Below are positions 1 through 61,055 of a stretch of DNA of 61,090 nucleotides, one piece after another. A program made the translations under genes and the position numbers. Location: positions 1-61,090 of the forward strand of contig JAACPI010000004.1 in assembly GCA_009995545.1 (NCBI GenBank), in the 5' to 3' direction. Source of the stretch: a bacterium (GTDB lineage Bacteria > Patescibacteriota > WWE3 > 2-01-FULL-39-13 > JAACPI01). The notes under the pieces were generated by a model, which worked only from the letters and a program-made list of their open reading frames with translations, searched no databases and was not told the origin of the DNA. Numbering within the stretch: the first letter of the stretch is position 1; each line of letters begins with the position of its first letter.

Positions 1-99
1 GTTGAGCGTGGAGAGGTTAATCCTACTGCGGATATAATAGATTCAATAGCTAAAGCTTTAAAAATTAAGATTAAATTTCCTCTTGGAGATTCTAAATAA
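1..99 (+). CDS. 3' end of a window-truncated XRE-like helix-turn-helix protein
   Basis: The frame-1 translation VERGEVNPTADIIDSIAKALKIKIKFPLGDSK* resembles the last helices of Cro/XRE HTH domains (ErG..nP....l..ia.aL). The N-terminus lies outside the window. Confidence 0.35.
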   Translation, partial: VERGEVNPTADIIDSIAKALKIKIKFPLGDSK

Positions 100-39215: not shown

Positions 39216-39545
39216 ATGAAGAGAATAATTTTATTCTCTTTGTCTCTATTTTTGTTTAGCGTTTTAAAGCCAGATTATATCCACTCTCAAGACAAAGACG
39301 GGATAAACAAAATTATTCAACAAAATCTTGAAGATAGTACATCAGATTTTATAAAGAGTACGGGCGAAGATTTACAGGAATACGTACAAGAAGAAGTTAG
39401 CAACAAGACTATAGAATTAACTGAACAGGTTTATTCTCCTAAGTTTATAGATTCTGTTAAAAGTACTTTTTGGTATTGGTGGGGACAGCTATTAACATTT
39501 ATCCAACAAAAAGTCTCTGAATTTGGTAAGTATTACTCTAGGTAG
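39216..39545 (+). CDS. Small secreted or anchored protein (109 aa)
   Basis: An N-terminal signal-like segment (IILFSLSLFLFSVL) in an ORF directly abutting the previous stop. Confidence 0.4.
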   Translation: MKRIILFSLSLFLFSVLKPDYIHSQDKDGINKIIQQNLEDSTSDFIKSTGEDLQEYVQEEVSNKTIELTEQVYSPKFIDSVKSTFWYWWGQLLTFIQQKVSEFGKYYSR

Positions 39546-42980: not shown

Positions 42981-43946
42981 TTGGCCTTTTATCGAGAGAT
43001 TAATTGTTTTACAAAATTTAAATGTCATTTAACCCTGTTTAATATTAAAATCTTAAGTTCCTTTAAAAAATACACCTATGACGATAATACAAATGCGTAT
43101 GATTTTTATCTTCAAAATAAAGAAAATTTAGAAAAGTTTTATTCTGTAATACCCAAAGAATTTTACACAATGGTAGAGGAGGAGGTTTTATTGGCTTTAA
43201 ATTCTGACCTAGCCTGTAACAAATCTCATTTTGTTAACATAATGCGAAAAGTGGTACACGTTTTAGTAGAAATTCCTGCATTAGCTCAAGAGCTATACGA
43301 CTTGTCTAAAGATAAAAGCTTAAAGCAAGAAAAGTTTTTATCTTCTTTATTACACGACTTAGGTCATTTTCAGCAGTACTTAACTATACAGTCTTTTAAC
43401 AATTTTAAATATGATCATTGTATAGAAGGGGACAAGATTTTTGTATCTAAAATAGCAAAAAAAGAATTGAAAATTGAGTCACATTTAGAAAAAATTATTA
43501 GTTCTGTTATCGTAGAACATGGTTTGACTTTTATAGAATCCCAAGATCCAGAAAAAGTTAAGTGCATTTATTTTCTGCGTGATATAGATAAAATTTCGGC
43601 AATAGAAGCCTGGGATCGAAATCAAAGAAAAGTTATAGAAACAGACAAAAACGGCTGGGGTTTGTTAAAAAAGGGTTATAGCGAAGATGTAGTGCGTATT
43701 TTCCTGTCTTCTTCTCAAATAGATTATAAATATCGTAAAACGACTGCCGATGCAATGATTTGTTATTTAGCATTTATTTTTGACTTTTATTATAAAGAAT
43801 CCCTTCAACTAGTGTTAAAGAATGGTTATCTAAATAACATAATAAATTGTATCCCTCCCTTTTTAGATGAAAAAGATTTGGGTATAATAAGATTAATAAA
43901 GGACCATATTAGGGATTACGCTAGAAAAATTTTAAGTTCCAATTAA
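42981..43946 (+). CDS. HD-domain protein (N-terminus uncertain)
   Basis: SLLHDLGHF (HD motif) plus downstream His/Asp. The track start is a TTG. The reading frame is open back to 42942, and a 38-codon ORF (42854..42970) ends in an A-run just upstream. See the finding. Confidence 0.55.
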   Translation: MAFYREINCFTKFKCHLTLFNIKILSSFKKYTYDDNTNAYDFYLQNKENLEKFYSVIPKEFYTMVEEEVLLALNSDLACNKSHFVNIMRKVVHVLVEIPALAQELYDLSKDKSLKQEKFLSSLLHDLGHFQQYLTIQSFNNFKYDHCIEGDKIFVSKIAKKELKIESHLEKIISSVIVEHGLTFIESQDPEKVKCIYFLRDIDKISAIEAWDRNQRKVIETDKNGWGLLKKGYSEDVVRIFLSSSQIDYKYRKTTADAMICYLAFIFDFYYKESLQLVLKNGYLNNIINCIPPFLDEKDLGIIRLIKDHIRDYARKILSSN

Positions 43947-43949
43947 TAT

Positions 43950-44396
43950 CTGAAACAAGAATGTTTAAGTTGCAATATTGTAAACGGTAAGGTTAAGAGT
44001 CTTTTGGTTTATGAAGACGCCTGTTTTCATGCACATCAAGATTACGGGGTCCCTATTCCGGGCTTTATTGTAATTAGTTCTAAAAGACACTTAAGGTCTA
44101 TGTCTGATTTTAATGAAGAAGAACAAAAAAATTTTGGAATTATTCTCTGTAAGGTAAGAACTGCTATGGAAAAGGCTTTGGATATAAAAACAGTATACAC
44201 AGCCCAAAAAGAAAGAGATAAAGATCCTTTTCATTTTTGGATTTTACCTAGGTACCCCTGGATTTCTGAAATGTTTGGTAATTCTACCGCCTCAATTTCT
44301 AATTCTTTAGACTATGCCAAAGACAAATTAAAGACTGAGGAAAACTTAAAGGCTGTTGTAGCGTCTACGGACAAACTTTATAAATATTTAAATTAG
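43950..44396 (+). CDS. HIT-superfamily-like protein with a degenerate histidine triad; start codon unresolved
   Basis: ECLSCNIVNGKVKSLLVYEDA...GFIVISSKRH...DPFHFWILPRY aligns with HIT proteins (C.FC.I..G....vYEd, GH.lv.pk.H, HxHxHxxPR). The conserved N-terminus lies upstream of the track TTG (44004), and the only in-frame candidate start is CTG 43950. Confidence 0.55.
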   Translation: MKQECLSCNIVNGKVKSLLVYEDACFHAHQDYGVPIPGFIVISSKRHLRSMSDFNEEEQKNFGIILCKVRTAMEKALDIKTVYTAQKERDKDPFHFWILPRYPWISEMFGNSTASISNSLDYAKDKLKTEENLKAVVASTDKLYKYLN

Positions 44397-44397
44397 T

Positions 44398-44751
44398 ATG
44401 GAAATTAAAACTGGTTTTGTTAAAGACTTAGGTAGCGACACTAAAGGGTGGTTTGTGGGCAAATTTATGCCTAAAAATAGTCCTTTTCACTCAGAGGACT
44501 TTGAAGTTAAGTGGGTTGAGCGTAAAAAAGGGGAGGTAAAAGAGAACAAAAATCCACCAGAAAATAACCAAAAAACAGTTTGTATTTTAATTGAGGGCGA
44601 AATGGAATTTAACTTTCCTGACTCCAATCAAACAGTTGTTTTAAAAGATAAAGGGGAGTATCTGTTTTACAGCCCCACACCTATTCACAAAAGCACGGCC
44701 TTAAAAGACAGTACTGTAATTGTACTACGCTGGCCTTCTAAACTTCCTTAA
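44398..44751 (+). CDS. Small cupin-like protein
   Basis: A 117-aa protein with a beta-barrel-like pattern (KTVCILIEGEMEFNFPDSNQTVVLKDKGEYLFYSPTPIHKSTALKDSTVIVLRWPS). Confidence 0.45.
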   Translation: MEIKTGFVKDLGSDTKGWFVGKFMPKNSPFHSEDFEVKWVERKKGEVKENKNPPENNQKTVCILIEGEMEFNFPDSNQTVVLKDKGEYLFYSPTPIHKSTALKDSTVIVLRWPSKLP

Positions 44752-44753
44752 CT

Positions 44754-45746
44754 CTATCTGTGTGGGTATTTATATATCTGGTTATCTAAGTACCAACTTA
44801 CGGTTTTTTTAATACCCTCTTCCAACTCTATACTTGAGGTGTATTTAAGCATTTTTTGTGCTTTTGAAATATCGCCTTTTATATAGTCGCTGGTTAAAGC
44901 CGAATAATCTTTATCTTTAGACCTTACCATTTTTACATTCTTTTTACCCATTTCTTTTGCTATAGCATTAATGACTCTTTCCAAGGTGTAGCCTTTTCCA
45001 CTTGCTATATTTATTGCTTGATATTTAAATCTTTTATTAAAACAGTTTGTAATGTAATTTAGCGCCTCTTCTATATACAAATAATCTCTAACCGTGCCTT
45101 TATCACCATATAAAATTACGGGCCTGTCGTAATAAATTGACTGTAGTGCTCCATATACTATTGTGTGAGGGTTAAGTTCTGGTCCGTAGACACTAAAAAA
45201 TCTTAAACTTATCGCGGGAATATCGTAAAAAGTACTTAGGTATTCCACTACTTTCTCTCCTGCCAAACTGGCTGAACCTACAGGGGATAAAGGATTTAAT
45301 ACAATGTTTTTTTCAGTGTAGATATCTTTTTTTGTTTTTCCATAAACAGACTTTGCGGATCCATAAATATATTTTTTTACACTTAATTTTTTAGCTATCC
45401 CCATAGCTACAGAGTTTCCAACTACCGAGGCTTTTATGTAAAGTGTGTATTCAATTTTTTCTTTCTCCATGTAATAAAAATTTTCGGTAGCAAAATTTAT
45501 AAAAATATCCCAATTTCCTATAGGAATTTTGTTTATAATCTCTGGGTTAGTAATGTCGTCTCTTACAAAAGTAAAATTTTTAAAATTTAAAAGTTTTGTT
45601 ATTCTTCGCATTTTAACCTCAGTACCATAACTTTCGGTTAAGTTGTCTATTCCTACTACAGTGTCGCCTCTTTTGAGCAAACGGTCACATAATGAGTAAC
45701 CAACAAAACCCCCACATCCTGCTAAAATAATTTTTTGATTTTTCAT
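44754..45746 (-). CDS. Extended-SDR NAD-dependent epimerase/dehydratase-like protein lacking the catalytic YxxxK (paralog A)
   Basis: The GCGGFVG Rossmann motif and LRFFSVYGP are conserved. The YxxxK position reads SPVGSASLAGE, with V156 and S160 in place of Tyr and Lys. Confidence 0.8.
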   Translation of the reverse strand: MKNQKIILAGCGGFVGYSLCDRLLKRGDTVVGIDNLTESYGTEVKMRRITKLLNFKNFTFVRDDITNPEIINKIPIGNWDIFINFATENFYYMEKEKIEYTLYIKASVVGNSVAMGIAKKLSVKKYIYGSAKSVYGKTKKDIYTEKNIVLNPLSPVGSASLAGEKVVEYLSTFYDIPAISLRFFSVYGPELNPHTIVYGALQSIYYDRPVILYGDKGTVRDYLYIEEALNYITNCFNKRFKYQAINIASGKGYTLERVINAIAKEMGKKNVKMVRSKDKDYSALTSDYIKGDISKAQKMLKYTSSIELEEGIKKTVSWYLDNQIYKYPHR

Positions 45747-45916
45747 ATTACTTTAAATTTTATCACAGATTAGACGAGTTAATTTGTACCCATAACCCCA
45801 AATTTAGTGGTCATTTTTACGTAATTTCCCCTATCACAAAAGCTTACATTAAACATTGAATACTTCTTGGTTAAATATATCCTATAGCTGTTTACTATTA
45901 ATAATTTTATTTAATT

Positions 45917-46738
45917 ATGAAAAAAATATTAGTTCTAGGTGGCGTAGGTTTTTTAGGTAAGCATTTAATTGAGCAGGCAAATATAAAAGGAATTAAGGCA
46001 GACTACTTTGACATTAAGGCTGTCGGGAAAAACAAAAAGGATAAACTAGAATTAAGAACCCAAGATTTTAAAGGGTATGGAGCAATTTATGATTTTGCTG
46101 GGGTACTTGGAACACACGAAACCTTTGAAATAGCTGAAAAAGCTGTTGAGGTGAATATCTTGGGTACGCTAAATGTTCTAGAGCAAATAAAAGACCTAAA
46201 TATTCCATATTATTATATTACCTTGGGCAATAACTGGCTCAATCCTTACAGTATAACTAAAAATGCAGCGAGTAACTTTTGTTTAATGTATTTAAATGAA
46301 TATGGTACACCTGTGCAAGTTGTTAAAACTTATAATGCTTATGGGCCTTATCAAAAGCTTTTTCCAGTGCGTAAAATTGTTCCCACTTTTATGTACAAGT
46401 TAATAAAAGATGAAGAAATAGTAATTAATGGAGATGGTAACCAAATTGTCGATTTAGTTTACGCACCCGACTTAGCTAAAAGTTTGCTTAAAAATAAGCA
46501 AGTTGGTGTTGTTCACTACGGAAGTGCTAAACCTTTAACTGTAAAACAAGCTGTAGAGGCTTGTGCTAAATCATTAGGTATTAGTGACTATAAACTTAAA
46601 TTTGTCCCGAAAAGAATGGGTGAGCCTTTGCAGTCTACTTCGTTATCACCGAGAAAAATGGAATATTCAACTCCTTTAGAAAAAGGCTTAAATATAACAT
46701 CGGCCTGGTACAAAGGTGAAATTAAAAAATTAATATAA
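45917..46738 (+). CDS. Short SDR NAD-dependent epimerase/dehydratase family protein
   Basis: LGGVGFLGKHL (GxxGxxG) and NPYSITKNAA (YxxxK intact). Confidence 0.75.
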   Translation: MKKILVLGGVGFLGKHLIEQANIKGIKADYFDIKAVGKNKKDKLELRTQDFKGYGAIYDFAGVLGTHETFEIAEKAVEVNILGTLNVLEQIKDLNIPYYYITLGNNWLNPYSITKNAASNFCLMYLNEYGTPVQVVKTYNAYGPYQKLFPVRKIVPTFMYKLIKDEEIVINGDGNQIVDLVYAPDLAKSLLKNKQVGVVHYGSAKPLTVKQAVEACAKSLGISDYKLKFVPKRMGEPLQSTSLSPRKMEYSTPLEKGLNITSAWYKGEIKKLI

Positions 46739-46742
46739 ACTT

Positions 46743-47240
46743 ATGGTAAATGAAGCAGAAAAGCCAATATTCGAGGATATTCAACGAAGAGAAATAATTG
46801 AGGAAATGCGTGCCTATTTATTTCCAGGTAATACGGAGTCTTTGAATGATAAATCTGAGATAAATAGATATATAGACGATACTGCCTTGAATATTCCTAC
46901 TAGTCTATTAATTTTGTTGAGGAGGCCCAACCGCTTCCCCGTGAATGAAACCTTTCCATCTTTTAATTCCGCACAAAAGACAAGAAAGGAAGAAGAATTA
47001 TATTCTAACCACATATCGACTGTGTTTAAAGGTTTAGCTATGGGTATGGTTTTTATTGAGTACGGGGATACACCGTATTTTAAGTACAGCTCCAAAAATA
47101 CTATAGACATATCTAGTGTAAGAAAAATGGTTGAAATTGATCTCTCATTGATTACTCTGTTAAAGCTGAATTCTCCTTATAACTATAGGAATTACATATA
47201 TAGGCAAAGATCTATAACCGATCATCCCTTCGCTATTTAA
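46743..47240 (+). CDS. Hypothetical 165-aa protein
   Basis: The ORF starts 4 nt after the SDR gene stop. No recognisable motif. Confidence 0.45.
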   Translation: MVNEAEKPIFEDIQRREIIEEMRAYLFPGNTESLNDKSEINRYIDDTALNIPTSLLILLRRPNRFPVNETFPSFNSAQKTRKEEELYSNHISTVFKGLAMGMVFIEYGDTPYFKYSSKNTIDISSVRKMVEIDLSLITLLKLNSPYNYRNYIYRQRSITDHPFAI

Positions 47241-47522
47241 GTCTTAAGTACATATTTACTATACAAAAATTGTAGATATCTATTGACTATAGGTTATAAA
47301 TAATATACTATTTTCCTGTTTACAATTCTGCCCCCCCATAATTGTAACCAATTTGGGTGGGCACATTCATAATTTATCTTAGTCAACAAAAAACTTGCAT
47401 AAGTTTCTTCTTGAATAAGCGGACTACATTAAGAGCATTAATAACGTGTTTTTAATGTAGTTCGTTTTATTCACTCGGCCTAGGCAATCTCGCCGTAGGC
47501 ATTCAACCAAAAGGAGAAACAA

Positions 47523-48308
47523 ATGTTTGACAATCTATTGATTGGTGGTCGTTTTTGGGATGGGAAAAGTGAAGATCCGAGCCAGCTTTTGGCCTGGGTA
47601 GAGGCTCACTCAAACATTGCAAAACTTGCGGTCGCCGTCAACATTGCGAACGACAAGTCCCATGCAGTGAAGGCTCTACAGGAAGGTGGCGTAGCTACAG
47701 CAATCCCTGTCCAGCCTTGGCTCAGATGGTCACCAGCGCTTCTGGCTCTTACAGCAGAAGCAGTTCGACAGGGAAAGGAGTACGTACTATTTCTTTCCAC
47801 CACAATGCGGGTCGACGAGGTCTCAGTAGGGGCCCTAGTGCAAATTATGGATGAGAATCCTAGCATTATGCATCTCGGCCCGGCTTTTCCCGAACACGAC
47901 TTCCAACCAGGAGTCAACAAGATTCGGGGGAGAACTGTAGGTTGGAACAACTGTTCCATTCACCGAGTCAGTGCGCTATCTGGCTTTGGTTTCCAGCCCG
48001 GGTCTGAGGGACTTCTGGATCCTAAGGCGCAGGGAGTTGAGGAGGTGGTCTACGATTCTTTGAACCAGGCAATCCGCGGTCGTCAAAATCACCGAGTTCT
48101 CCTAGTGAAAGGACTTCCCGGTCTTATTGTATGGGATGTTAATACGGACTCGCATGGGGCCTGGTATGTGGTATACCACAATGACAAGCTTCAGTCGAAG
48201 GACGATCGTCCCGACGCTCAGTTGCGATTGCTGGGACTCTCCGCTGGAGAAGTCTGGCATGCCGAGTATGGAGATCTTCTCCAGAATGGGATGCCCTGGA
48301 ATCGTTAA
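47523..48308 (+). CDS. Hypothetical 261-aa protein encoded by a GC-rich foreign-looking cassette; weak GT-A-like features
   Basis: A strong SD (aaggag) lies 6 nt before the ATG. A hand count gives 32/60 G+C at 47641-47700, versus 19/60 at 46741-46800. GRTVGWNNCSIHRVSALSGFGF loosely resembles the GT2 G.N.a.rr.....GgF block, but no DxD motif is present (LFLSTTMRVDE). Confidence 0.7.
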   Translation: MFDNLLIGGRFWDGKSEDPSQLLAWVEAHSNIAKLAVAVNIANDKSHAVKALQEGGVATAIPVQPWLRWSPALLALTAEAVRQGKEYVLFLSTTMRVDEVSVGALVQIMDENPSIMHLGPAFPEHDFQPGVNKIRGRTVGWNNCSIHRVSALSGFGFQPGSEGLLDPKAQGVEEVVYDSLNQAIRGRQNHRVLLVKGLPGLIVWDVNTDSHGAWYVVYHNDKLQSKDDRPDAQLRLLGLSAGEVWHAEYGDLLQNGMPWNR

Positions 48309-48334
48309 GGTTGACTAAGTTTATGTAAACAACA

Positions 48335-48394
48335 GGAGGTCCCGGAGGACTAAAGAGCGTATTTCAGTACAAAACTCTTTAGACTCCGGCCTCC
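48335..48394 (+). terminator. Long GC-rich imperfect hairpin immediately after the GC-rich gene
   Basis: ggagg-tcccggag-gac-taaagag (48335-57) pairs with ctcttta-ga-ctccgg-cctcc (48375-94) in three helical segments of 5, 6 and 7 bp. No T-run follows. Confidence 0.5.
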
Positions 48395-48402
48395 AGTCAA
48401 CC

Positions 48403-48432
48403 AAATGTATAGCTAGGCTATACATTTTTAAT
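48403..48432 (+). terminator. AT-rich perfect hairpin plus T-run (intrinsic terminator)
   Basis: aaatgtatagc-tag-gctatacattt is followed by ttaatt. Confidence 0.6.
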
Positions 48433-48540
48433 TATATCTTATTTTTAAGGTATTTAACTACAGGTTATGTGTTTAAAAAAGATGAAACTATAAAAATTTC
48501 ACTTCTTTTAAGTACAAAATAAGTACTTTAAAACAAAAAA

Positions 48541-49575
48541 ATGACTACTAAGAGAGATGAAACAATAAACTACCCAACCGTCCTAAGTGAGTCTTGGGAT
48601 AAAAATATTCAAGTATCTTTAATACGTCCAGATGTGGTAAAAAAAGAGGAATTATGGACTAATAAAGGAATTCCTGAAGGTGCCGCAAGTTGGAGATTAA
48701 AAAGAGAGTATTCTACTTTACAGTATTTAAGTACTCAAGGCTTACCTGTTCCAACTCCTCTAGATATTACAGAAGGTAGTGGTGTGCGTGGAGCCGAAGC
48801 TATTGCATTTACAATGCGGAGAGTCCCTGGTTACTCCTTAGACTTCCCTGACTCTCCAGATAGAATTGACCATTTCGAAGATTTTCGTGCTAATTTTGAA
48901 TGTTATCTTGAGGATGCTTTAGAGTCTTTAGACTCCATACACAAAGCCGGCTATGCTTTAGGGGATATAAAGCCTGGAACTTTTATTATTAATCCAAAAA
49001 CAAAAAAAGTGACTTTAGTGGATTTTGAATTTGCTTACAGTGTCAAAGACCTTGAACAAAATATGGGGTATGGGGCTAATTCACTATTAAATTCTCTGAA
49101 AGTGGATCCAGGAATCGCTTGTTTAATAAACAATTTAACACAACCCTCCCCGGGTATTTCGTTTGAACAGGCTAAGATGATAGAAATTTCTTCTTTGGTC
49201 AGGTATTTTTGTATTTTAGCTTCTTCGGATTTAGATAACCCAGTTGAGTTAAAATCTATCGAGTTTTCCGAAAATGAACTTAATCAGCTTATGGAGGCTG
49301 CAAGATATTCTTCAACGCTCCATTATTTGGACCGAGCAGGTATTCCTATTAATGGTGTTAGTAGTATTGATTTTAGAAGTTTTACTGAGCAAATTGGTGA
49401 TGACTACGTACACCCCGCTTTTATGAGATACGGGTATGAAGCAGCGTTTAGAAAGCAAGCTGTTACATCTTTAACCACCTTGGGTATAGAACTATCCGAA
49501 TCACTTCGTCAGTTTATAAATAAAAGCTTAAGTTTAGATTTATCCAGAAGACCAATTAATTACAAATTAAAATAA
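48541..49575 (+). CDS. Atypical protein-kinase-like (APH/choline-kinase/ePK-like) phosphotransferase
   Basis: The catalytic-loop-like GDIKPGTFII (D142 ... T147, where kinases have Asn) is followed by VTLVDFEFA (D161-F-E, the DFG/DxE equivalent). There is no clear Gly-rich loop. A C-terminal extension of about 150 aa is present. Confidence 0.55.
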   Translation: MTTKRDETINYPTVLSESWDKNIQVSLIRPDVVKKEELWTNKGIPEGAASWRLKREYSTLQYLSTQGLPVPTPLDITEGSGVRGAEAIAFTMRRVPGYSLDFPDSPDRIDHFEDFRANFECYLEDALESLDSIHKAGYALGDIKPGTFIINPKTKKVTLVDFEFAYSVKDLEQNMGYGANSLLNSLKVDPGIACLINNLTQPSPGISFEQAKMIEISSLVRYFCILASSDLDNPVELKSIEFSENELNQLMEAARYSSTLHYLDRAGIPINGVSSIDFRSFTEQIGDDYVHPAFMRYGYEAAFRKQAVTSLTTLGIELSESLRQFINKSLSLDLSRRPINYKLK

Positions 49576-49580
49576 AAAAT

Positions 49581-50225
49581 ATGAATACACCAAAATTACC
49601 ACAAATATTAGAAATTGGCGGGTCGATAGAGAGACCTGAAGTAGATCCAGACAGGGAATTTATTGAATTTATTACTAGGGCTAGTACCGAACAGATGACA
49701 AGTTATATAGATGAGGAGTTTCCTGAGGAAGCAGAAGAAATGAAAGCTGTTTTATTATCCGAGCGTTCTGTAGTTGCACCGTATTTACTTTTAGACCGTG
49801 ACTCCCTATTAATAATGTTTACCCCGTTAAGGGATAGAGTACAAAATGCTACTGAACCTGATTATTTTTCTATGATTAGACCTGGATTAAATCAGGTTTT
49901 AAGATATCCTGGCGAAGGTAGCCAAGGTAAAGGTAGGGCGGAGGGTTACAAGAATGCCTTATACGCTTTTTATAAAGGTGTAGTAGATCAAAAAATTGAT
50001 TTTAGATCCCATTGCCCCGCAATTTTTAAACCTGACGGTAGTTATGTTACTTTTACGGGTTATGAGGTATCTTCTCAGACTTTGGAACCAATACATATTT
50101 TAATGGTTGCTTACTCTGTTCTTAGGTATGATTTTGCAACTGATATAGGTTTACTTGAGATGGACGGCCCAAATATTTTCCACGTACTTGAAGATCCAGT
50201 AGGTTACAAAAGGCGTGGGAGGTAA
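49581..50225 (+). CDS. Hypothetical 214-aa acidic protein
   Basis: The ORF starts 5 nt after the kinase-like gene. No recognisable motif. Confidence 0.5.
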   Translation: MNTPKLPQILEIGGSIERPEVDPDREFIEFITRASTEQMTSYIDEEFPEEAEEMKAVLLSERSVVAPYLLLDRDSLLIMFTPLRDRVQNATEPDYFSMIRPGLNQVLRYPGEGSQGKGRAEGYKNALYAFYKGVVDQKIDFRSHCPAIFKPDGSYVTFTGYEVSSQTLEPIHILMVAYSVLRYDFATDIGLLEMDGPNIFHVLEDPVGYKRRGR

Positions 50226-50270
50226 GGATACGGATTTTGCTTAATTATCGTATATTTGGATTACTAAAAT

Positions 50271-51209
50271 ATGTACTCAATAAGATCTTTATTCAAAAAT
50301 AATTCTTCGGAAGGCCCTCTATTTGGAGAGGGTGTTTTACATGTGAGCGACAGAACCCCTGAAGAAATAATTGATCATTTACCAACTATAGATTCTACTG
50401 AAAGTTTTTTGGGTATAGATAACTTACCCCAGGGTGCAGTTATGGTAAATTTAGGCAGTGGACAGTATGATTTGTTCTTTGAGTGGGTAAAGGAGCGTAG
50501 GCCAGATGTCACGCCTGTAGGAATAGACCTATCCGCAGGCGTTAATCCTGAAGATTTAAAGTCTGGAAATATAGGGATTGAGCAGTATGAGAGATTGAGG
50601 ATGGTGATCTATACTGATAGAACTAAAGAAAGAGGAAAAGGCCTGTTTATAATGGGCGTGACTTCTATTGCTACTGACCCAGAAATCTATCAGTTAGATC
50701 GGCAAAGACATTTAAGTAAATACAACGTAATATCCGCACGTTCCCCAGAGATCCCCCTAAGACCTAATTCCGTAGATCTTTTAGTAGATTCCTACGGTCT
50801 AACTTCTTATACCGATGGTAAGATTAAGCGAACTTTATTAAAAAATGTTGTTAAGGTACTGGCGGATGGAGGTAAGGCAATAGTATACCCCGTAAAAAAT
50901 AAGCCCATCTTTCCTACCTCTGAGAATGAAAATAGCTCTGTTGACGAGGTGAGTAAACTGGTAAGAGCTGTGCTAGGTTGTGATAAAGATGTGTCCGTTG
51001 AGTTATTCCTAACATACCAAGAAAAGGAGAGGTTTGGTTATTATATAGGCCTTGTTGTTCGTAAATACTCTAATGATAGTAATAAACGTAGGCTGAATCG
51101 AGCAAGTATTTTCATATCGGGTTTAGAAGACTCTGAAAAAGATTTAGCTATATCTTCACTTTCGCAGAAATATAAAGGTTTAAAAAAGTATGGTCTACAA
51201 ATACTTTAA
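50271..51209 (+). CDS. Hypothetical Rossmann-like protein, possible class I SAM methyltransferase fold (NLGSG motif)
   Basis: VMVNLGSGQYD (motif-I-like), VGIDLS (acidic end of beta-2), SVDLLVDSYGL and VLADGGKAIVYPV (later motifs). Confidence 0.45.
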   Translation: MYSIRSLFKNNSSEGPLFGEGVLHVSDRTPEEIIDHLPTIDSTESFLGIDNLPQGAVMVNLGSGQYDLFFEWVKERRPDVTPVGIDLSAGVNPEDLKSGNIGIEQYERLRMVIYTDRTKERGKGLFIMGVTSIATDPEIYQLDRQRHLSKYNVISARSPEIPLRPNSVDLLVDSYGLTSYTDGKIKRTLLKNVVKVLADGGKAIVYPVKNKPIFPTSENENSSVDEVSKLVRAVLGCDKDVSVELFLTYQEKERFGYYIGLVVRKYSNDSNKRRLNRASIFISGLEDSEKDLAISSLSQKYKGLKKYGLQIL

Positions 51210-51284
51210 TACTTAGTACGTTTGTATACCGCTTAATACACTTTTACTTTGCTTACTGCCTCAATTGGCTGTATTATTTATTTG

Positions 51285-51983
51285 ATGGAAGAATTAAAGG
51301 ACTTAATAAATGATATTGAATATGCTTTTTTTGATTGGGACGGGACAGTGTTAAAAAGTAACCCAGATTTAAGTATAAAACTAGCTTTAAAAGAGTTGCT
51401 TAATTACCTTTACTCCAACCCCAATTTTATTAGTGCCCCACTAGAGCAGACTGTTACCCGAACTGTAGGTAAGCCTAGAGATGAGCATGTTAAAGATTTT
51501 TTTAACATTTTAGAAAGTAGTCTTACTAAAAAGAATACTGCGGGCGAATCCGTCTGGGATGCAATATACGGTCCAATAAAAGCAGGGTTTTCCGAAGAAA
51601 TAAACTCGGATGTTTTGGTTTTGTTTGAAAAATTAAGAAATTCAGGTGTAAAAATAATAGTATCTTCTGTGGTCCCTGAACCCCGTCTTTTAAAGACTGT
51701 CGGAGAATATGGTATTACGGAAATGGTTGATTTGATTTTAGGTAAAAATACTTTAGGTACGAAAGGTGGGGGCCATATAAAAAGAGCGGCGGATTTTTTC
51801 GAGGTTTCGAAGGAGATGTTAGTTTTAAAAAGTATGTTTGTGGGAGATACTCCAACAGATATGAAATTGAGCAGCGGGATTAAATATAGGTTTCTTTTGC
51901 AGCCGGATCTAACTGAAAGTATTCTAAAAAAGTCAGATTATTACATAGTAAATAGCTTTTCAAGCCTACGTGAATTTCTCTAG
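51285..51983 (+). CDS. HAD-superfamily hydrolase (phosphatase-like)
   Basis: FFDWDGTVL (DxDGT motif I), VSSV (motif II-like), and VGDTPTDM (motif IV). ATG 51285 is preferred over the TTG at 51249. Confidence 0.8.
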   Translation: MEELKDLINDIEYAFFDWDGTVLKSNPDLSIKLALKELLNYLYSNPNFISAPLEQTVTRTVGKPRDEHVKDFFNILESSLTKKNTAGESVWDAIYGPIKAGFSEEINSDVLVLFEKLRNSGVKIIVSSVVPEPRLLKTVGEYGITEMVDLILGKNTLGTKGGGHIKRAADFFEVSKEMLVLKSMFVGDTPTDMKLSSGIKYRFLLQPDLTESILKKSDYYIVNSFSSLREFL

Positions 51984-52004
51984 TCCTAGTTTTATTTCTA
52001 ACGA

Positions 52005-52997
52005 CTAACTTTTATGGTATCGGTGTTTATGTTGCTCAGTTTCTAAATACCACTTTACGGTGTTCCTAATCCCTGTATCTATATCTGTCTGAGGTTTATA
52101 TTTAAGCATTTTTACCGCCTTACTTATGTCGGCCTGAACCTTATTAGCCGTAATATCTGAGAAGTTTTTATGTGATTTACCTATTTTTATTTTACTTTTG
52201 GGTATCCCCATTTCCACTGCTACTTTGTAGGCTATTTCTCTAAGTGAATAACTTTTACCTGAGGCGATATTAAAAACTTGAAATTTTAGCCTCTTGTCAA
52301 AAGTAGAAATAATATAGTTAACTAGATCGTCTATATATATAAAATCCCTAGTATCGTCGATGCTAGAATACATTTTTAAACCTTCCCCGTGGTGAAACTT
52401 TTCCATATAATGACCTATAATCTTATAGAGAGGCATTCCTGGGCCGTATTCAGAAAAGATTCTTAGAACTACGCAAGGCAGGTTGTAGTATTCACTCATA
52501 AATTCCACCACGTGCTCACCGGCTAGTTTAGAAGAACCGTTGGGAGATACGGGCTTTGGGATAATCTTTTTCTCTGTAAATTTAATTTTTTTAGTTTTTC
52601 CGTAAACACTAAAAGTTGAGCCGTAAATATATTTTTTAGCGCCTAGTTTTTTTGCCAACTCTATAATTTTTGCAGTGCCTATAACATTTGTAGTCAAGTA
52701 TGGGCTGTAATTTAAGAGTTCGTGCGAGTCATAATAAAAGTCTTTAGAGGCTAAATCTACTACGATGTCTATGGACTCTTCTTTTAGTAAAGACTCCACC
52801 CCTTCATTTAAAACACCTAATTTTACGAATCTAAAGTTTTTATAACTAGTTAATTCCAGGGTCCTAGACTCTTTAAGGTGATTTGGGGACTCTGCTTCTA
52901 TATTGTCTATACCTACGACGTAATTTCCTAGCTCCAGAAGCCTCTTGGTCAAGGCGTGTCCTACAAAACCCGATGAACCTGTTACTAGTACTTTCAT
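52005..52997 (-). CDS. Extended-SDR epimerase/dehydratase-like protein lacking the catalytic Tyr (paralog B)
   Basis: It is 330 aa, the same length as paralog A, and shares blocks with it (VVGIDN, KKYIYGS..SVYGKTKK, LAGE, NIASGK, MLKY). The YxxxK position reads SPNGSSKLAGE, with N153 replacing Tyr and K157 kept. Confidence 0.8.
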   Translation of the reverse strand: MKVLVTGSSGFVGHALTKRLLELGNYVVGIDNIEAESPNHLKESRTLELTSYKNFRFVKLGVLNEGVESLLKEESIDIVVDLASKDFYYDSHELLNYSPYLTTNVIGTAKIIELAKKLGAKKYIYGSTFSVYGKTKKIKFTEKKIIPKPVSPNGSSKLAGEHVVEFMSEYYNLPCVVLRIFSEYGPGMPLYKIIGHYMEKFHHGEGLKMYSSIDDTRDFIYIDDLVNYIISTFDKRLKFQVFNIASGKSYSLREIAYKVAVEMGIPKSKIKIGKSHKNFSDITANKVQADISKAVKMLKYKPQTDIDTGIRNTVKWYLETEQHKHRYHKS

Positions 52998-53003
52998 AGG
53001 CTA

Positions 53004-53012
53004 AGAATACCA
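53004..53012 (-). promoter_or_regulatory. Extended -10-like box TGGTATTCT (minus strand), 6 nt upstream of ATG 52997
   Basis: The reverse complement reads tggtattct-tagcct-ATG. Confidence 0.35.
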
Positions 53013-53040
53013 CATAAAGATTAACGTAGTAAATTATAAC

Positions 53041-53049
53041 TGTTAGTAT
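53041..53049 (+). promoter_or_regulatory. Extended -10-like box TGTTAGTAT, 7 nt upstream of ATG 53057
   Basis: The sequence reads tgttagtat-ttaccta-ATG. It is divergent from the box at 53004-53012. Confidence 0.4.
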
Positions 53050-53056
53050 TTACCTA

Positions 53057-54130
53057 ATGAATAATTTTCAGATGGACGGGGGGTCTGGCAATTCGAATTC
53101 CCAAATTTCGATTCCTAAAGGACCTGAAATTGAAGATTCCTTACACCACTTAAAAAATTTAGGGGACCAGCTATGGGAAGACTGTAGAGATGTTTCTAGG
53201 ACAGGTGAGGTTAGAGGAGTACTAGACCGTAGTTTTATTGAAAACTATGTGTTTAACGATGCGAATTTTTCGAAATTTGTTGTAAGAAACTTGCCTAATC
53301 CTACGGAGTTAATAGATCAATTGGCTGTCTTAGACTTGCCTGAAAACTTTCTCGCGGTAAACCTAGGTTCAGGTTGGGGTAATGATACTAGAAATCTTTT
53401 AAGAGATCCTCGAATGAGACCAAGAATGGTCATTGATCTGGAGTTAGAACCTACTGTCTCTGTATATGATAATGACGAAAACCGCGCCAGCGGGTTTTCT
53501 GGCCGCACAAGATCCTTGGTAGGTGATCTCCGATCTACACCCTTTCCAAATCATAAATCCGAAAATGGTCCCCTCGTGCATTTGGTTTTTTCCTCTGGAG
53601 TCGGTCGTTATCAGGTCCCAAGTAAACTTGGCGGAGTCGAGGAGCTAGATCGTAGGATGTCGGACAGTCTAAGTATAGTTAGAAGTGGGGGCTACACCGT
53701 GCATATGGAGATGGGAGATGCAGCTAAGACATTCTTTTTTGGAGGCAAAGACTGTGGGGGAGGATTTAATACAGTGCTTAAGAATAGGGGCTACCAGGCT
53801 GCACCACAGAGCAAGCATCTAGAAAAAGGAGAATATTCAGTTAAGAAATTAGTAGTCAGCAACTTACCGAGGTTTACAAGATGGTACCTTTTATACGCAA
53901 TTACTTCAGGTGACCATAATTTAAATTTGCCCCCAGATACGGATTCTAATAATCTTAATGAGATAGAAGAACTAGTTCAAAACCTAAGGTCTCTCGTCAA
54001 AGAAGAATTAAGGAGAAATGGTAAAAATCTAGATTTTAGCTCCTCTAACCCTGACTACTTGAAGTTACTTTTAGAAATTGCGGGATCTGAGGATAAGGAA
54101 TCTTACATTGTCACTGCTCGAAAACATTAA
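53057..54130 (+). CDS. Hypothetical Rossmann-like protein, distant paralog of 50271..51209 (NLGSG motif)
   Basis: FLAVNLGSGWGND, MVIDLEL, LVHLVFSSGVG and VRSGGYTVHM occur in the same order as the motifs in 50271..51209. There are GC-rich patches (30/60 at 53461-53520). Confidence 0.45.
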   Translation: MNNFQMDGGSGNSNSQISIPKGPEIEDSLHHLKNLGDQLWEDCRDVSRTGEVRGVLDRSFIENYVFNDANFSKFVVRNLPNPTELIDQLAVLDLPENFLAVNLGSGWGNDTRNLLRDPRMRPRMVIDLELEPTVSVYDNDENRASGFSGRTRSLVGDLRSTPFPNHKSENGPLVHLVFSSGVGRYQVPSKLGGVEELDRRMSDSLSIVRSGGYTVHMEMGDAAKTFFFGGKDCGGGFNTVLKNRGYQAAPQSKHLEKGEYSVKKLVVSNLPRFTRWYLLYAITSGDHNLNLPPDTDSNNLNEIEELVQNLRSLVKEELRRNGKNLDFSSSNPDYLKLLLEIAGSEDKESYIVTARKH

Positions 54131-54161: not shown

Positions 54162-54168
54162 TGTCCCT

Positions 54169-55248
54169 ATGAAAGTACTAGTAACAGGAGCCGCAGGATA
54201 TATTGGTAGCTACGTAGCAAGGGCTCTGCTTTGGAGAGGCGATGATGTGGTTGGGTTAGATAATTTTAATTTTTACTACCCTCGTAACTGTAAAGAGTTC
54301 CACGTAGACTTGTGCCACAAGGCCTCTGGTCGAAAAACTCATTATTTTTCTGGAGAAACTATTGATCCTGTTTATAAGAAATTAAAAGGTTATTTTGATG
54401 GGAAAAAAGCTAAGGAACCTGGTCAATTTAGTTTTTATGAAGCAGATATTACCAATTACGAATTTTTAGAATACATTTTTACCAGAGAAAAACCTGATGC
54501 GGTAATTCACCTTGCTGCAATGGCAGGAGTTCCTTTTTCAACTAAACAACCTAGAGTTTACTCTAGTGTAAACGTTGATGGAACAACCAACTTATTAAAC
54601 TTGTGCAAAGAAGTTGGTACAAATAAGTTTATATTTGCCTCTTCCTCCTCAGTTTATGGGGACATGGGTGGGGGGTTAGTAACAGAAAAAGACGATGTAA
54701 CAAGGGCGGTTTCAATTTATGGAGCTACTAAGGTTGCAGGTGAATCCATTAGCCATGCGGCTCATGCAATATATGGAATTAACTGTGTAAATATAAGAAT
54801 ATTTGGGCCAATTTATGGACCTCTTCAAAGACCCTATGGGATGTTTTTACCTCGGGCGATAAACTTTATACGTAACAATAAGATAATGCAGATTTATGGT
54901 AGAAAAGGTCTTGAAACGGCTAAAGACAGTACCTATATTGATGATCTAGTAGATGGTTTATTACTTGCTTTAGACAGCGATGTTAAATTTGATGTATTTA
55001 ATATAGGTACACAAAACCCCCAATCGATTCAACAATGGCTTGACGCTGTTGAAAAGGCTTATGGAGAGCCTGTAAAATATAAAATTGTAGATGTAGATGT
55101 TGCCGATGTAGCTAGTAGTGCCAGTATTGCTAAGGCCCGTAAAATTCTTGGCTACTCTCCAAAAGCAACTTTGGAAGAAGGTGTTAAAAGACAGGTAGAG
55201 GTGTTTAAAATGATGCCTGAGTGGTACCAAACTATGGATAATGTTTAA
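54169..55248 (+). CDS. NAD-dependent nucleotide-sugar epimerase (UDP-glucuronate/UDP-glucose 4-epimerase-like), canonical
   Basis: VTGAAGYIGS, ASSSSVYGD, YGATKVAGE (intact YxxxK), and IRIFGPIYGP. Confidence 0.88.
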   Translation: MKVLVTGAAGYIGSYVARALLWRGDDVVGLDNFNFYYPRNCKEFHVDLCHKASGRKTHYFSGETIDPVYKKLKGYFDGKKAKEPGQFSFYEADITNYEFLEYIFTREKPDAVIHLAAMAGVPFSTKQPRVYSSVNVDGTTNLLNLCKEVGTNKFIFASSSSVYGDMGGGLVTEKDDVTRAVSIYGATKVAGESISHAAHAIYGINCVNIRIFGPIYGPLQRPYGMFLPRAINFIRNNKIMQIYGRKGLETAKDSTYIDDLVDGLLLALDSDVKFDVFNIGTQNPQSIQQWLDAVEKAYGEPVKYKIVDVDVADVASSASIAKARKILGYSPKATLEEGVKRQVEVFKMMPEWYQTMDNV

Positions 55249-60431: not shown

Positions 60432-61055
60432 ATGCCTTATAGAAATAGGATAAAAGATTTTTATACCGACTCCTACTATCATCTATACGCCCGTGGCATA
60501 AATAAATAACCACTATTCCATAGAACGCCCGATTACACATTTTTTCTCTACTTACTTAAAAAATATTTGACCCCAAAATTTATAGAAAAAAAGATAGTCA
60601 ATGGTTTTGAAGTGGAGATCGAAGCCAATGGTGTAAGCGATCTAGTTAAACTACATGCCTACTGTCTTATGCCTAACCATTTCCACCTGTTGGTTCAAAA
60701 TGTAGAGATTGAGGGTGTGCAACTACTAATGAGGCGGGTACTGACCGCCTACGTTAGAGTATTTAATAAAAAATATGAAAGAGAAGGCCCCTTAATACAA
60801 GGTTCCTACAGATGTGTTCCTATACACTCGGAACCTCAATTAATCCACACGTCTCGTTATGTACATTTGAATCCTCTTAAAGATAGATTAGTAAAAAAAT
60901 CGATAGAGTACCCATACTCGTCTTTAAAGTTTTATTATAACGGGAAGAATTTTCCAATATGGTTGAAGCGTAACGCAGTAATTCAGAATAGTACTGATTT
61001 TGGTAAGTTGGACACACTGTTGAAGGTTTTTGAGAAAGAGGATAATCCTATTTAG
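60432..61055 (+). pseudogene. REP-associated tyrosine transposase (RAYT/IS200-like, Y1 HUH) interrupted by one in-frame TAA
   Basis: MPYRNRIKDFYTDSYYHLYARGINK-TAA(60507-09)-PLFHRTPDYTFFLYLLKKYL continues in the same frame into the track ORF at 60567..61055. That ORF carries the HUH motif (LMPNHFHLLV) and the catalytic Tyr region (SRYVHLNP). Confidence 0.75.

Follow-up and report, generated by a model that had tools for sequence, protein, structure and literature searches.

Bacterial surface polysaccharide loci that combine a conserved part with a variable one include the Enterococcus faecalis EPA "decoration" region, the lactococcal and streptococcal cwps/rgp loci, and the Acinetobacter K loci. 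Polysaccharide loci of this kind are the subject of three published accounts (PMC6497286, PMC8752142, and PMC3628348). Here we compare with these systems a stretch of 61,090 nucleotides of bacterial DNA (contig JAACPI010000004.1; "the window" below), and in particular its positions 46743 to 54130, which hold eight genes. The original prediction, made before any database was searched, was that these eight genes form a single undescribed tailoring module. Our results lead us to a different view, which we hold with moderate confidence: the region is a hypervariable decoration slot in a glycan locus, filled piecemeal, plus two conserved core genes of that locus. The eight genes are listed here with two further genes of the slot and the anchor on its right (SDR, short-chain dehydrogenase/reductase; aa, amino acids; SAM, S-adenosylmethionine).

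44754..45746, minus strand: extended-SDR paralog of 330 aa at the left edge of the slot (Pfam Epimerase, 4e-29)
45917..46738, plus strand: SDR273, a short SDR of 273 aa, slot gene (Pfam Epimerase, 1e-24)
46743..47240, plus strand: g165, a soluble protein of 165 aa
47523..48308, plus strand: g261, a protein of 261 aa encoded by a GC-rich cassette
48541..49575, plus strand: g344, 344 aa, probable atypical protein-kinase fold, first gene of a probable operon
49581..50225, plus strand: g214, a soluble, acidic orphan protein of 214 aa (pI 4.8)
50271..51209, plus strand: g312, 312 aa, predicted divergent class I SAM-methyltransferase fold
51249..51983, plus strand: HAD, predicted HAD-superfamily hydrolase of 244 aa from a TTG start or 232 aa from an ATG start, last gene of the probable operon
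52005..52997, minus strand: SDR330, a core-locus extended SDR of 330 aa
53057..54130, plus strand: g357, 357 aa, predicted core-locus class I methyltransferase, located between two divergent SDR genes
54169..55248, plus strand: SDR359, a canonical SDR of the epimerase/dehydratase type (Pfam Epimerase, 3.5e-49), the right-hand synteny anchor

Three related loci, L010, L030, and L007, were recovered, and comparison with the window gives a conserved core in the order minus-strand SDR (SDR330 in the window), methyltransferase (g357), SDR359, GT2, GT2, LPG_synthase_TM, and GT1 (GT, glycosyltransferase); the locus would serve a cell-envelope glycan or glycolipid, and SDR330 and g357 are core genes of it. 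L010 carries g130, g117, a minus-strand NTP_transferase gene, a NUDIX gene, and a gene for a 241-aa protein, followed by the core, whose products are 76% (SDR330), 48% (methyltransferase), 79% (SDR359), 77% (first GT2), and 85% (second GT2) identical to those of the window. L030 has four unrelated slot genes and then the core (SDR330, 46%; methyltransferase, 23 to 27%, with Pfam methyltransferase matches; SDR359, 72%; GT2, 51%; GT2, 73%; LPG_synthase_TM, 64%; GT1, 55%). L007, from an uncultured Candidatus Saccharibacteria metagenome-assembled genome, provides the nearest species-level match of SDR359 (65%), with local synteny; here the homologs of SDR330 (48%) and SDR359 (65%) are adjacent, the core methyltransferase is absent, and the slot holds a methyltransferase gene and four unknowns. 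No match to g165, g261, g344, g214, g312, or HAD was found in L010, L030, or L007, even with phmmer --max, and the slot contents are mutually unrelated in all four genomes. The slot would thus run from g165 through HAD and include the two SDR genes at 44754 to 46738, just upstream of the core, and its content would change completely from one related genome to the next.

The claim that all eight genes form one tailoring module is not supported, SDR330 and g357 belonging to the core and the other six genes being absent from all three related loci. The complete set was likewise not found together in L001, L007, L010, L013 to L016, L018, or L030, a thin sampling; only SDR330, g357, and SDR359 recur together. 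By the original prediction's own account, a lack of co-occurrence elsewhere would refute it, and this is largely what was observed: the few relatives of g344, g312, and g261 stand in other contexts. As most of the proteins have two relatives or fewer, this is a weak test. On the right, SDR330 and the downstream core serve as the anchor in L010, L030, and L007; the left anchors, g130 and g117, were seen only in L010. In the window g130 and g117 occupy positions 44004 to 44751, and g117 matches phrog_24762 (unknown function) at 1.9e-9. No convincing family was found for the 321-aa open reading frame (ORF) at 42981 to 43946, upstream of this pair. When metagenome contigs were scanned with SDR330, no relative exceeded 31% identity and no additional syntenic locus turned up. 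A 281-aa slot protein of L007 with similar-looking motifs was considered as a distant homolog of g261 and was discarded (hhalign probability, 0.3%).

All eight ORFs were confirmed at their predicted positions. A codon-usage score based on the window's own codon usage was highest in the annotated frame for each of the eight, which supports their being real genes; by our own estimate, an ORF of 165 to 357 codons is very unlikely to arise by chance in DNA of about 35% GC. Because contigs of independent assemblies (ENA, JGI, and Logan), at least 24 in number, encode an identical g344 protein, and because five of these contigs, compared base by base, are near-identical to the window (1 to 20 substitutions over 12 to 21 kb), the arrangement is not an assembly artifact. 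The window is a bacterial chromosome segment of about 33% GC with genes for TypA, LysS, SerS, SecA, SufB, and SufS. Judging from the label of one related genome, that of L007, this low-GC organism is probably a member of the Saccharibacteria. The stretch has glycan genes on both sides and so lies inside a glycan locus, as had been proposed: GT2-GtrA, GT2, and UDP-glucose dehydrogenase upstream and an SDR, two GT2s, LPG_synthase_TM, and GT1 downstream. No transmembrane helices were predicted in any of the eight products. Pfam and NCBIfam gave no match for g165, g261, g214, or g357, and all matches for g344 and g312 were below threshold. The absence of LicC/LicD-type proteins and cytidylyltransferases was borne out by Pfam scans of ORFs of at least 117 aa between 38 and 61 kb, a 109-aa ORF at 39216 to 39545 having been left unscanned. 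No RNA family was detected with Rfam within 44 to 56 kb.

SDR330 matches Epimerase at 5.4e-41 and has an intact NAD-binding GxxGxxG motif (GSSGFVG). It had been called a degenerate SDR, and it does lack the catalytic YxxxK motif, with SPNGSSK at this position and Asn in place of Tyr. The residue is also Asn in L010 and is His in L007 and in L030, where the Lys is replaced as well. Since the orthologs in three other genomes also lack the Tyr, the SDR330 subfamily appears from these alignments to be old, conserved, and noncanonical. SDR273 has a canonical YxxxK (NPYSITK), and SDR359 also retains the Tyr. Beyond weak paralogous matches, L010, L030, and L007 contain no ortholog of SDR273. The slot SDR at 44754 to 45746 is 41% identical to SDR330 and has neither the Tyr nor the Lys of YxxxK (SPVGSAS); the corresponding position in L010 holds the NTP_transferase gene instead.

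Relatives of g165, g214, g312, and g357 were sought with HMMER in one query that joined the four. For g357 there were only two. The profile built from these three sequences matches the PDB methyltransferase LahSB at 1.5e-6, and hhalign pairs g357 with the g312 family at 96% probability. P0044, the distant syntenic ortholog of g357, has precomputed Pfam matches to Methyltransf_31, Methyltransf_11, and Methyltransf_25 (E value of 1e-5 or lower). The sequence of g357 contains VNLGSGWG, VIDLE, GDLRSTPFP, VHLVFSSGV, and IVRSGGY (motifs I, II, IV, and V), and by these signatures g357 is a predicted class I SAM-methyltransferase-fold protein orthologous to the core-locus gene. Identity of g357 is 48% with the copy in L010 and 23 to 27% with that in L030, compared with 72 to 85% for SDR359 and the second GT2. 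The L010 neighbors of the g357 ortholog (4357 to 5385 in L010; 5857 to 6951 in L030) are 76 to 85% identical to those of the window, and the two orthologs have a native G+C content at third codon positions (GC3), 0.24 and 0.20, compared with 0.36 for the window copy. This suggests that g357 either evolves fast or is an allele replaced from outside. The arrangement in L007 had led us to ask whether g357 had simply been inserted between the SDR genes; L010 and L030 show instead that it is an ancestral core gene, absent in L007.

A perfect 23-nt inverted repeat (CCTATGAAAGTACTAGTAACAGG) occurs at 52978 to 53000 and 54166 to 54188. Each arm comprises 3 nt of leader plus the 20 nt (MKVLVTG) with which SDR330 and SDR359, the divergent SDR genes on either side of g357, begin; the two proteins are only about 28% identical. 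The SDR genes of L007 begin differently (MRILITG and MKVFVTG), and metagenome copies have either G or C at position 53000. The repeat could have arisen by gene conversion, or it could be an element common to both genes that acts in regulation or at the start of translation.

Base composition bears on the piecemeal filling of the slot. The counts first made by hand, 31 G+C of 60 nt at 48781 to 48840 and 30 of 60 at 53461 to 53520, were exact (window mean, 20.4 ± 4.4 per 60 nt). They had been taken to suggest stepwise acquisition, a conclusion that holds for g261 and in part for g357 and fails for g344, g214, g312, and HAD. With a GC of 0.52 and a GC3 of 0.50, compared with a GC3 of about 0.22 to 0.34 in genes outside the stretch, g261 is the only gene that is clearly foreign by composition; at least this one gene was acquired separately, as predicted. 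Composition is moderately raised in g357 (GC, 0.41, with 0.45 to 0.48 in the central part; GC3, 0.36). The GC3 of g344, g214, g312, and HAD is native (0.26 to 0.31), as is their codon usage, and g214 has the strongest native codon-usage score (0.335). Two hairpin structures flank g261:

47419..47465, plus strand: terminator-like hairpin between g165 and g261, a 20-pair stem followed by a T-run
48309..48427, plus strand: long GC-rich hairpin and an intrinsic-terminator-like hairpin with a T-run, starting at the g261 stop codon

The second of these has a minimum free energy of -51.6 kcal/mol (z = -7.8), and none of 200 shuffled sequences was as stable. Together the hairpins isolate g261 as a unit of its own, and we conclude that g261 is a recently imported, horizontally acquired single-gene cassette. 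An imperfect 13-nt direct repeat, CA(T/G)TCAACCAAA(A/T), is present at 47500 to 47512, 11 nt before the start codon of g261, and at 48394 to 48406, where the long 3' hairpin ends; the two copies may delimit the imported cassette or may be due to chance. An integron cassette was considered and rejected. An attC site is ordered RYYYAAC...GTTRRRY, and the arms of the 3' hairpin (GTTGAC...GTCAAC) run in the opposite order.

The genes that follow g261 are organized differently. Because g344, g214, g312, and HAD have native codon usage, are separated by spacers of 5, 45, and 39 nt (g214 begins 5 nt past the g344 stop codon), and show no internal terminator, they probably form a single operon. The pattern scan detected no terminators between the genes from g344 to HAD; one terminator-like hairpin lies inside g312 (50314 to 50333). 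At the other end of the slot, g165 starts 4 nt after SDR273. The slot would accordingly hold an imported cassette and, separately, a probable operon.

Although g261 was among the four proteins first described as having no known fold, its fold can now be predicted. No Pfam model covers its family, and a single-sequence PDB search with g261 gave nothing useful. A profile search recovered 70 relatives, and the AlphaFold2 model computed with the family alignment has a mean predicted local distance difference test score (pLDDT) of 91.8 and a predicted template-modeling (TM) score of 0.91. Foldseek matches this model to the PDB structures of TarP, EXTL2, HAS (hyaluronan synthase), GnT-I, and SpsA (probability, 1.00; E value, about 1e-7; TM score, 0.5 to 0.6), and the top PDB and viral matches are almost all GT-A glycosyltransferases. 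The model thus identifies g261 as a predicted GT-A-fold, glycosyltransferase-like protein. It superposes on known GT-A enzymes (TarP and TarS of Staphylococcus aureus, EXTL2, hyaluronan synthase, GnT-I, and SpsA) at sequence identities of only 9 to 15%, and differs from them in belonging to a family without a Pfam model that is found mostly on diatom-like eukaryotic contigs. The relatives with a named source are from diatoms (Fragilaria and Fistulifera) or other MMETSP/EukProt eukaryotes, and the four contigs inspected carry eukaryotic genes (split proteasome subunits, Gaa1, mitofilin, formin, and CFAP58). One relative (L018) is located in a bacterial sugar operon with genes for an HldE-like enzyme, a ROK kinase, radical-SAM enzymes, a GT4, and a methyltransferase.

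The family motifs are PWGKF, SAE, GRTxPWNT, GVEEV, and KMKSKxERP, and g261 is the most divergent member, with changes at 19 of 53 conserved positions compared with a median of 2. Known GT-A enzymes carry DxD after beta-4; the family has SAE at this position, and g261 has STT, which replaces the near-invariant Glu and leaves no acidic residue at the position equivalent to DxD (the equivalence being deduced from strand 87-91 of the model). The invariant G-V-E-E is retained. The closest relatives are 31 to 37% identical, and g261 lies on a long branch beside a few divergent members, one of them bacterial. A clear transfer from a eukaryote to a bacterium was not accepted as the origin of g261, in view of the long branch, identities of at most 37%, and the lack of a nameable donor.

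The prediction that g344 is kinase-like was supported by matches that are individually below threshold and mutually consistent. Pfam scores were 19.2 bits for Pkinase (cutoff, 31.7) and 19.8 bits for APH (cutoff, 23.2), and the best NCBIfam match was to the kinase region of LanKC (1.6e-7; 30 bits compared with a cutoff of 575), in which residues 109 to 174 of g344 align with positions 328 to 392 of an 833-position model. Against the PDB, 148 sequences were matched at an E value of 1 or lower, and among the best 60 listed all were protein kinases or LanKC except for one chimera. The matches to Cdc7, CK2, VRK1, and LanKC span helix E, the catalytic loop, and the DFG region. They cover only about 50 to 65 residues and score far under the family cutoffs; LanKC also has lyase and cyclase domains, and g344 has neither. 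PADLOC returned generic Ser/Thr-kinase similarity only, with generic STK models as well. PHROGs gave nothing of known function for the stretch apart from one weak "kinase" match for g344 (E value, 0.047), and on the basis of the PHROGs and PADLOC results, readings of the region as a defense island or a prophage were dropped.

Only one homolog of g344 (38% identity) was found among 5.8 billion clusters; it sits among membrane-protein genes, is nonsyntenic, and is not in a glycan locus. No relative was found when GTDB species genomes were scanned with the kinase alignment, and scans of viral contigs with g344 and g214 found nothing. The two homologs share K35, E56, D142, K144 (within LGDIKPGTF), and D161 (within DFE), and alignment to Cdc7 and CK2 indicates that K35, E56, D142, and D161 would correspond to the beta-3 Lys, the helix-C Glu, the catalytic Asp, and the DFG Asp. 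Both proteins lack the Gly-rich loop and the His and Arg of HRD (LGD in its place), and have Thr for the catalytic-loop Asn and D-F/L-E for DFG. By these features g344 is a predicted atypical protein-kinase-fold protein, and it probably still binds ATP. WaaP and KdkA are protein-kinase-fold enzymes that phosphorylate core sugars of lipopolysaccharide (LPS), and to our knowledge they are the only well-known precedent for the phosphotransferase envisaged in the original prediction. Like them, g344 is a eukaryotic-like kinase-fold protein encoded within a glycan biosynthesis locus; unlike them, it has a catalytic loop (D-I-K-P-G-T) of the Ser/Thr-kinase type, and g344 showed no match to PF06293 (Kdo/WaaP) at an E value of 0.1 or lower.

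The product of 51249 to 51983 had been predicted to be a HAD phosphatase, and its profile matches and motifs identify it as a putative HAD-superfamily hydrolase. PF00702 is matched with 28.9 bits (cutoff, 26.4) and HAD_2 with 27.9 bits (cutoff, 23.8), and motifs I to IV are all present (DWDGT, the Ser in VSSVV, the Lys in KGGGHIKR, and GDTPTD). Its best NCBIfam matches are weak and resemble phosphoglycolate phosphatases, which are small-molecule phosphatases; no PDB match was found by sequence. For g214 and g165, the description as proteins of no recognizable family stands. No relative of g214 was present among 1.84 billion representative proteins, and its AlphaFold2 model, computed without an alignment, is unusable (pLDDT, 42). 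The single relative of g165 (P0009; 42% identity by HMMER and 40% by tblastn) is encoded on contigs of 594 to 782 nt.

The NLGSG motif noted at the outset occurs in g312 (VNLGSGQ) as in g357 (VNLGSGWG), and family profiles support the suggestion that the two proteins are methyltransferases, less firmly for g312 than for g357. Exhaustive HMMER searching recovered 41 relatives of g312, of about 250 aa and 27 to 38% identity. By itself, g312 reaches only a subthreshold score for Methyltransf_11 (15.9 bits compared with 21.2); among 41 aligned members of the family (g312 and 40 relatives), 20 match Methyltransf_25 and 18 match Methyltransf_11 (best E value, 1.5e-8), and the family profile matches PDB methyltransferases at 1e-6. 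Single-sequence PDB searches with g312 and g357 gave nothing useful. The motifs of g312 are VNLGSG(Q) (motif I), VGIDLS, SVDLLVDS, and VLADGGKAIVYP, and this evidence points to a putative divergent class I SAM-methyltransferase-fold protein. Class I methyltransferases (Methyltransf_11/25; YtkW, LahSB, and phosphoethanolamine N-methyltransferases) are matched by the family profiles of both proteins, in which motifs I, II, IV, and V can be read. Whereas those enzymes start motif I with Asp or Glu, g312 and g357 start it with Asn (the g312 family has E, D, or N at this position); g312 further differs in having about 85 residues inserted after beta-2, and g357 in being extended by about 90 residues at the N terminus and about 130 at the C terminus. 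One member of the g312 family stands alone among genes for KsgA, Dus, and a DNA glycosylase. The 280-aa methyltransferase of the L007 slot was examined as a relative of this family and rejected. In one JGI metagenome copy (L005, 12384 to 12387), GAAT is replaced by ATGA at window positions 50924 to 50927, giving a stop at codon 219 of g312; the gene is split there into 218 and 86 aa, and the truncated form is the representative of its database cluster.

If the region is a decoration slot beside a conserved core, its products would be soluble cytoplasmic enzymes that alter a precursor or repeat unit before export. In such a scheme, g312 and g357 would carry out SAM-dependent methylation; g261 might add a sugar, if it is still active, and may be crippled; and g344 and HAD would provide an ATP-dependent step of phosphorylation and dephosphorylation on some acceptor. 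The Ser/Thr-type catalytic loop of g344 leans slightly toward a protein acceptor, and the glycan context and the small-molecule-like matches of HAD lean toward a sugar or lipid intermediate. Several points weigh against this scheme and against the slot itself as we describe it. The number of related loci is three, so "hypervariable" refers to few genomes. The operon structure is deduced from spacing and pattern scans. By sequence, g344 resembles Ser/Thr protein kinases more than small-molecule or sugar kinases. The near-invariant Glu of its family is lost from g261, and the stop in L005 hints that g312 is dispensable, so that some slot genes may be inactive.

The first alternative to the decoration slot is close to the original prediction, namely, that one new tailoring pathway makes a phosphorylated and/or methylated substituent of a surface glycan or lipid, or joins it on, using the kinase-fold phosphotransferase, the two methyltransferases, and HAD. 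The enzyme classes are as predicted, the genes from g344 to HAD are tightly spaced on one strand with no terminator between them, and all products are soluble, as precursor-level chemistry leads one to expect. Precedents exist both for protein-kinase-fold sugar kinases in LPS core synthesis, WaaP and KdkA, and for the logic of a kinase plus a HAD phosphatase, found in heptose nucleotide-sugar synthesis (HldE/GmhB). We nevertheless consider a single pathway unlikely. The gene set was found together in none of the other loci recovered, g357 and SDR330 are in the conserved core and hence in a different unit, g261 is a separate imported cassette, the D-x-K-P catalytic loop of g344 is of the Ser/Thr protein-kinase type, and no transferase partner for a phospho-substituent is present. 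A narrower version, to which we give rather little credence, is that g344, g214, g312, and HAD form an undescribed envelope-decoration route of an ultra-small epibiotic bacterium, in which a stripped-down kinase phosphorylates a glycan or a lipid-linked intermediate with the orphan g214 as its partner, a GT-A gene from a family almost confined to diatom-like eukaryotes having been captured beside it. If this were true, the captured GT-A enzyme next to the operon would imply gene flow between domains.

The same catalytic loop raises the question of whether g344 and HAD are a regulatory protein kinase/phosphatase pair that switches glycan assembly, possibly through g214 as the target and by analogy with pairs in capsule loci. 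All the matches of g344 are to Ser/Thr protein kinases and the LanKC peptide kinase domain, HAD-fold protein phosphatases exist, and g214 is encoded only 5 nt after the kinase gene. We find this doubtful, and more so than the narrower decoration route. Without a Gly-rich loop, the His and Arg of HRD, or the catalytic-loop Asn, g344 may be a pseudokinase or act on another acceptor; the weak best matches of HAD are small-molecule phosphatases; and capsule regulators are BY-kinases, bacterial tyrosine kinases of the P-loop fold, which is a different one.

In our estimation it is very improbable that most genes of the slot are selfish or decaying insertions that at present play no part in making the glycan. 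Such decay would account for the orphan status of g214 and the single relative of g165, for the loss of 19 of 53 family-conserved residues in g261 (the conserved Glu included), for the premature stop in g312 in one population, and for the absence of both Tyr and Lys from the SDR at 44754. It is at odds with the fact that all the ORFs are long and intact in the window, that g344 is identical in all 24 contigs read, and that the five copies compared base by base match except for the L005 stop in g312. The native codon usage and GC3 of g344, g214, g312, and HAD, the intact HAD motifs, and the conservation of the putative catalytic residues of g344 at 38% identity also argue against it. A cluster for ribosomally synthesized and posttranslationally modified peptides, in which a LanKC-like kinase and a LahSB-like methyltransferase act on a ribosomal peptide, is suggested by the best NCBIfam match of g344 (the kinase part of a class III lanthionine synthetase) and the best PDB profile match of g357 (a lanthipeptide-cluster methyltransferase), and was rejected as having practically no chance of being correct, because lyase/cyclase domains and a precursor peptide are lacking, as are a protease and a transporter, and because g357 is orthologous to a core glycan-locus gene. 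The match to LanKC is confined to some 65 residues at the catalytic loop, and the methyltransferase similarity is generic.

Two further observations were made around the locus. A metagenome-assembled genome labeled "uncultured Methanosarcinales archaeon" (L008; CAYFMJ010000001.1, 269721 to 290806) carries a 57%-identical homolog of SDR359 beside homologs of UDP-glucose dehydrogenase; the genes could have been transferred, the pair could be widespread, or the contig could be misbinned. At the end of the window, about 6 kb downstream of the locus, there is a fragment of an IS200-like Y1 transposase (60567 to 61055; PF01797, 2.8e-6).

Ultra-small bacteria such as the Saccharibacteria and their relatives live attached to the cells of a host. 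The polymers on their surface, which are almost uncharacterized, likely decide attachment and phage susceptibility, and a conserved core with a fast-exchanged slot would be a concrete place for strain-level surface variation in this group. The analysis also yielded an unannotated GT-A family whose members occur in diatom-like eukaryotes and in a few bacteria, a clade of extended SDRs conserved (46 to 76% identity across the three related loci) despite the lack of the catalytic Tyr, and a kinase-fold protein with a single known relative.

Our results suggest that the locus resembles the EPA, cwps/rgp, and K loci in having a conserved backbone core beside a slot of tailoring genes that differ between relatives and are horizontally exchanged. 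It differs from them in the organism, probably one of the Saccharibacteria type and thus of an under-studied phylum, and in what the slot contains, which in those loci is usually glycosyltransferases, a flippase, and a polymerase and here is a eukaryotic-like protein-kinase-fold protein, a HAD hydrolase, and near-orphans. By this analogy, the locus would not represent a new kind of system and instead fits the known conserved-plus-variable layout, with an unusually orphan content.

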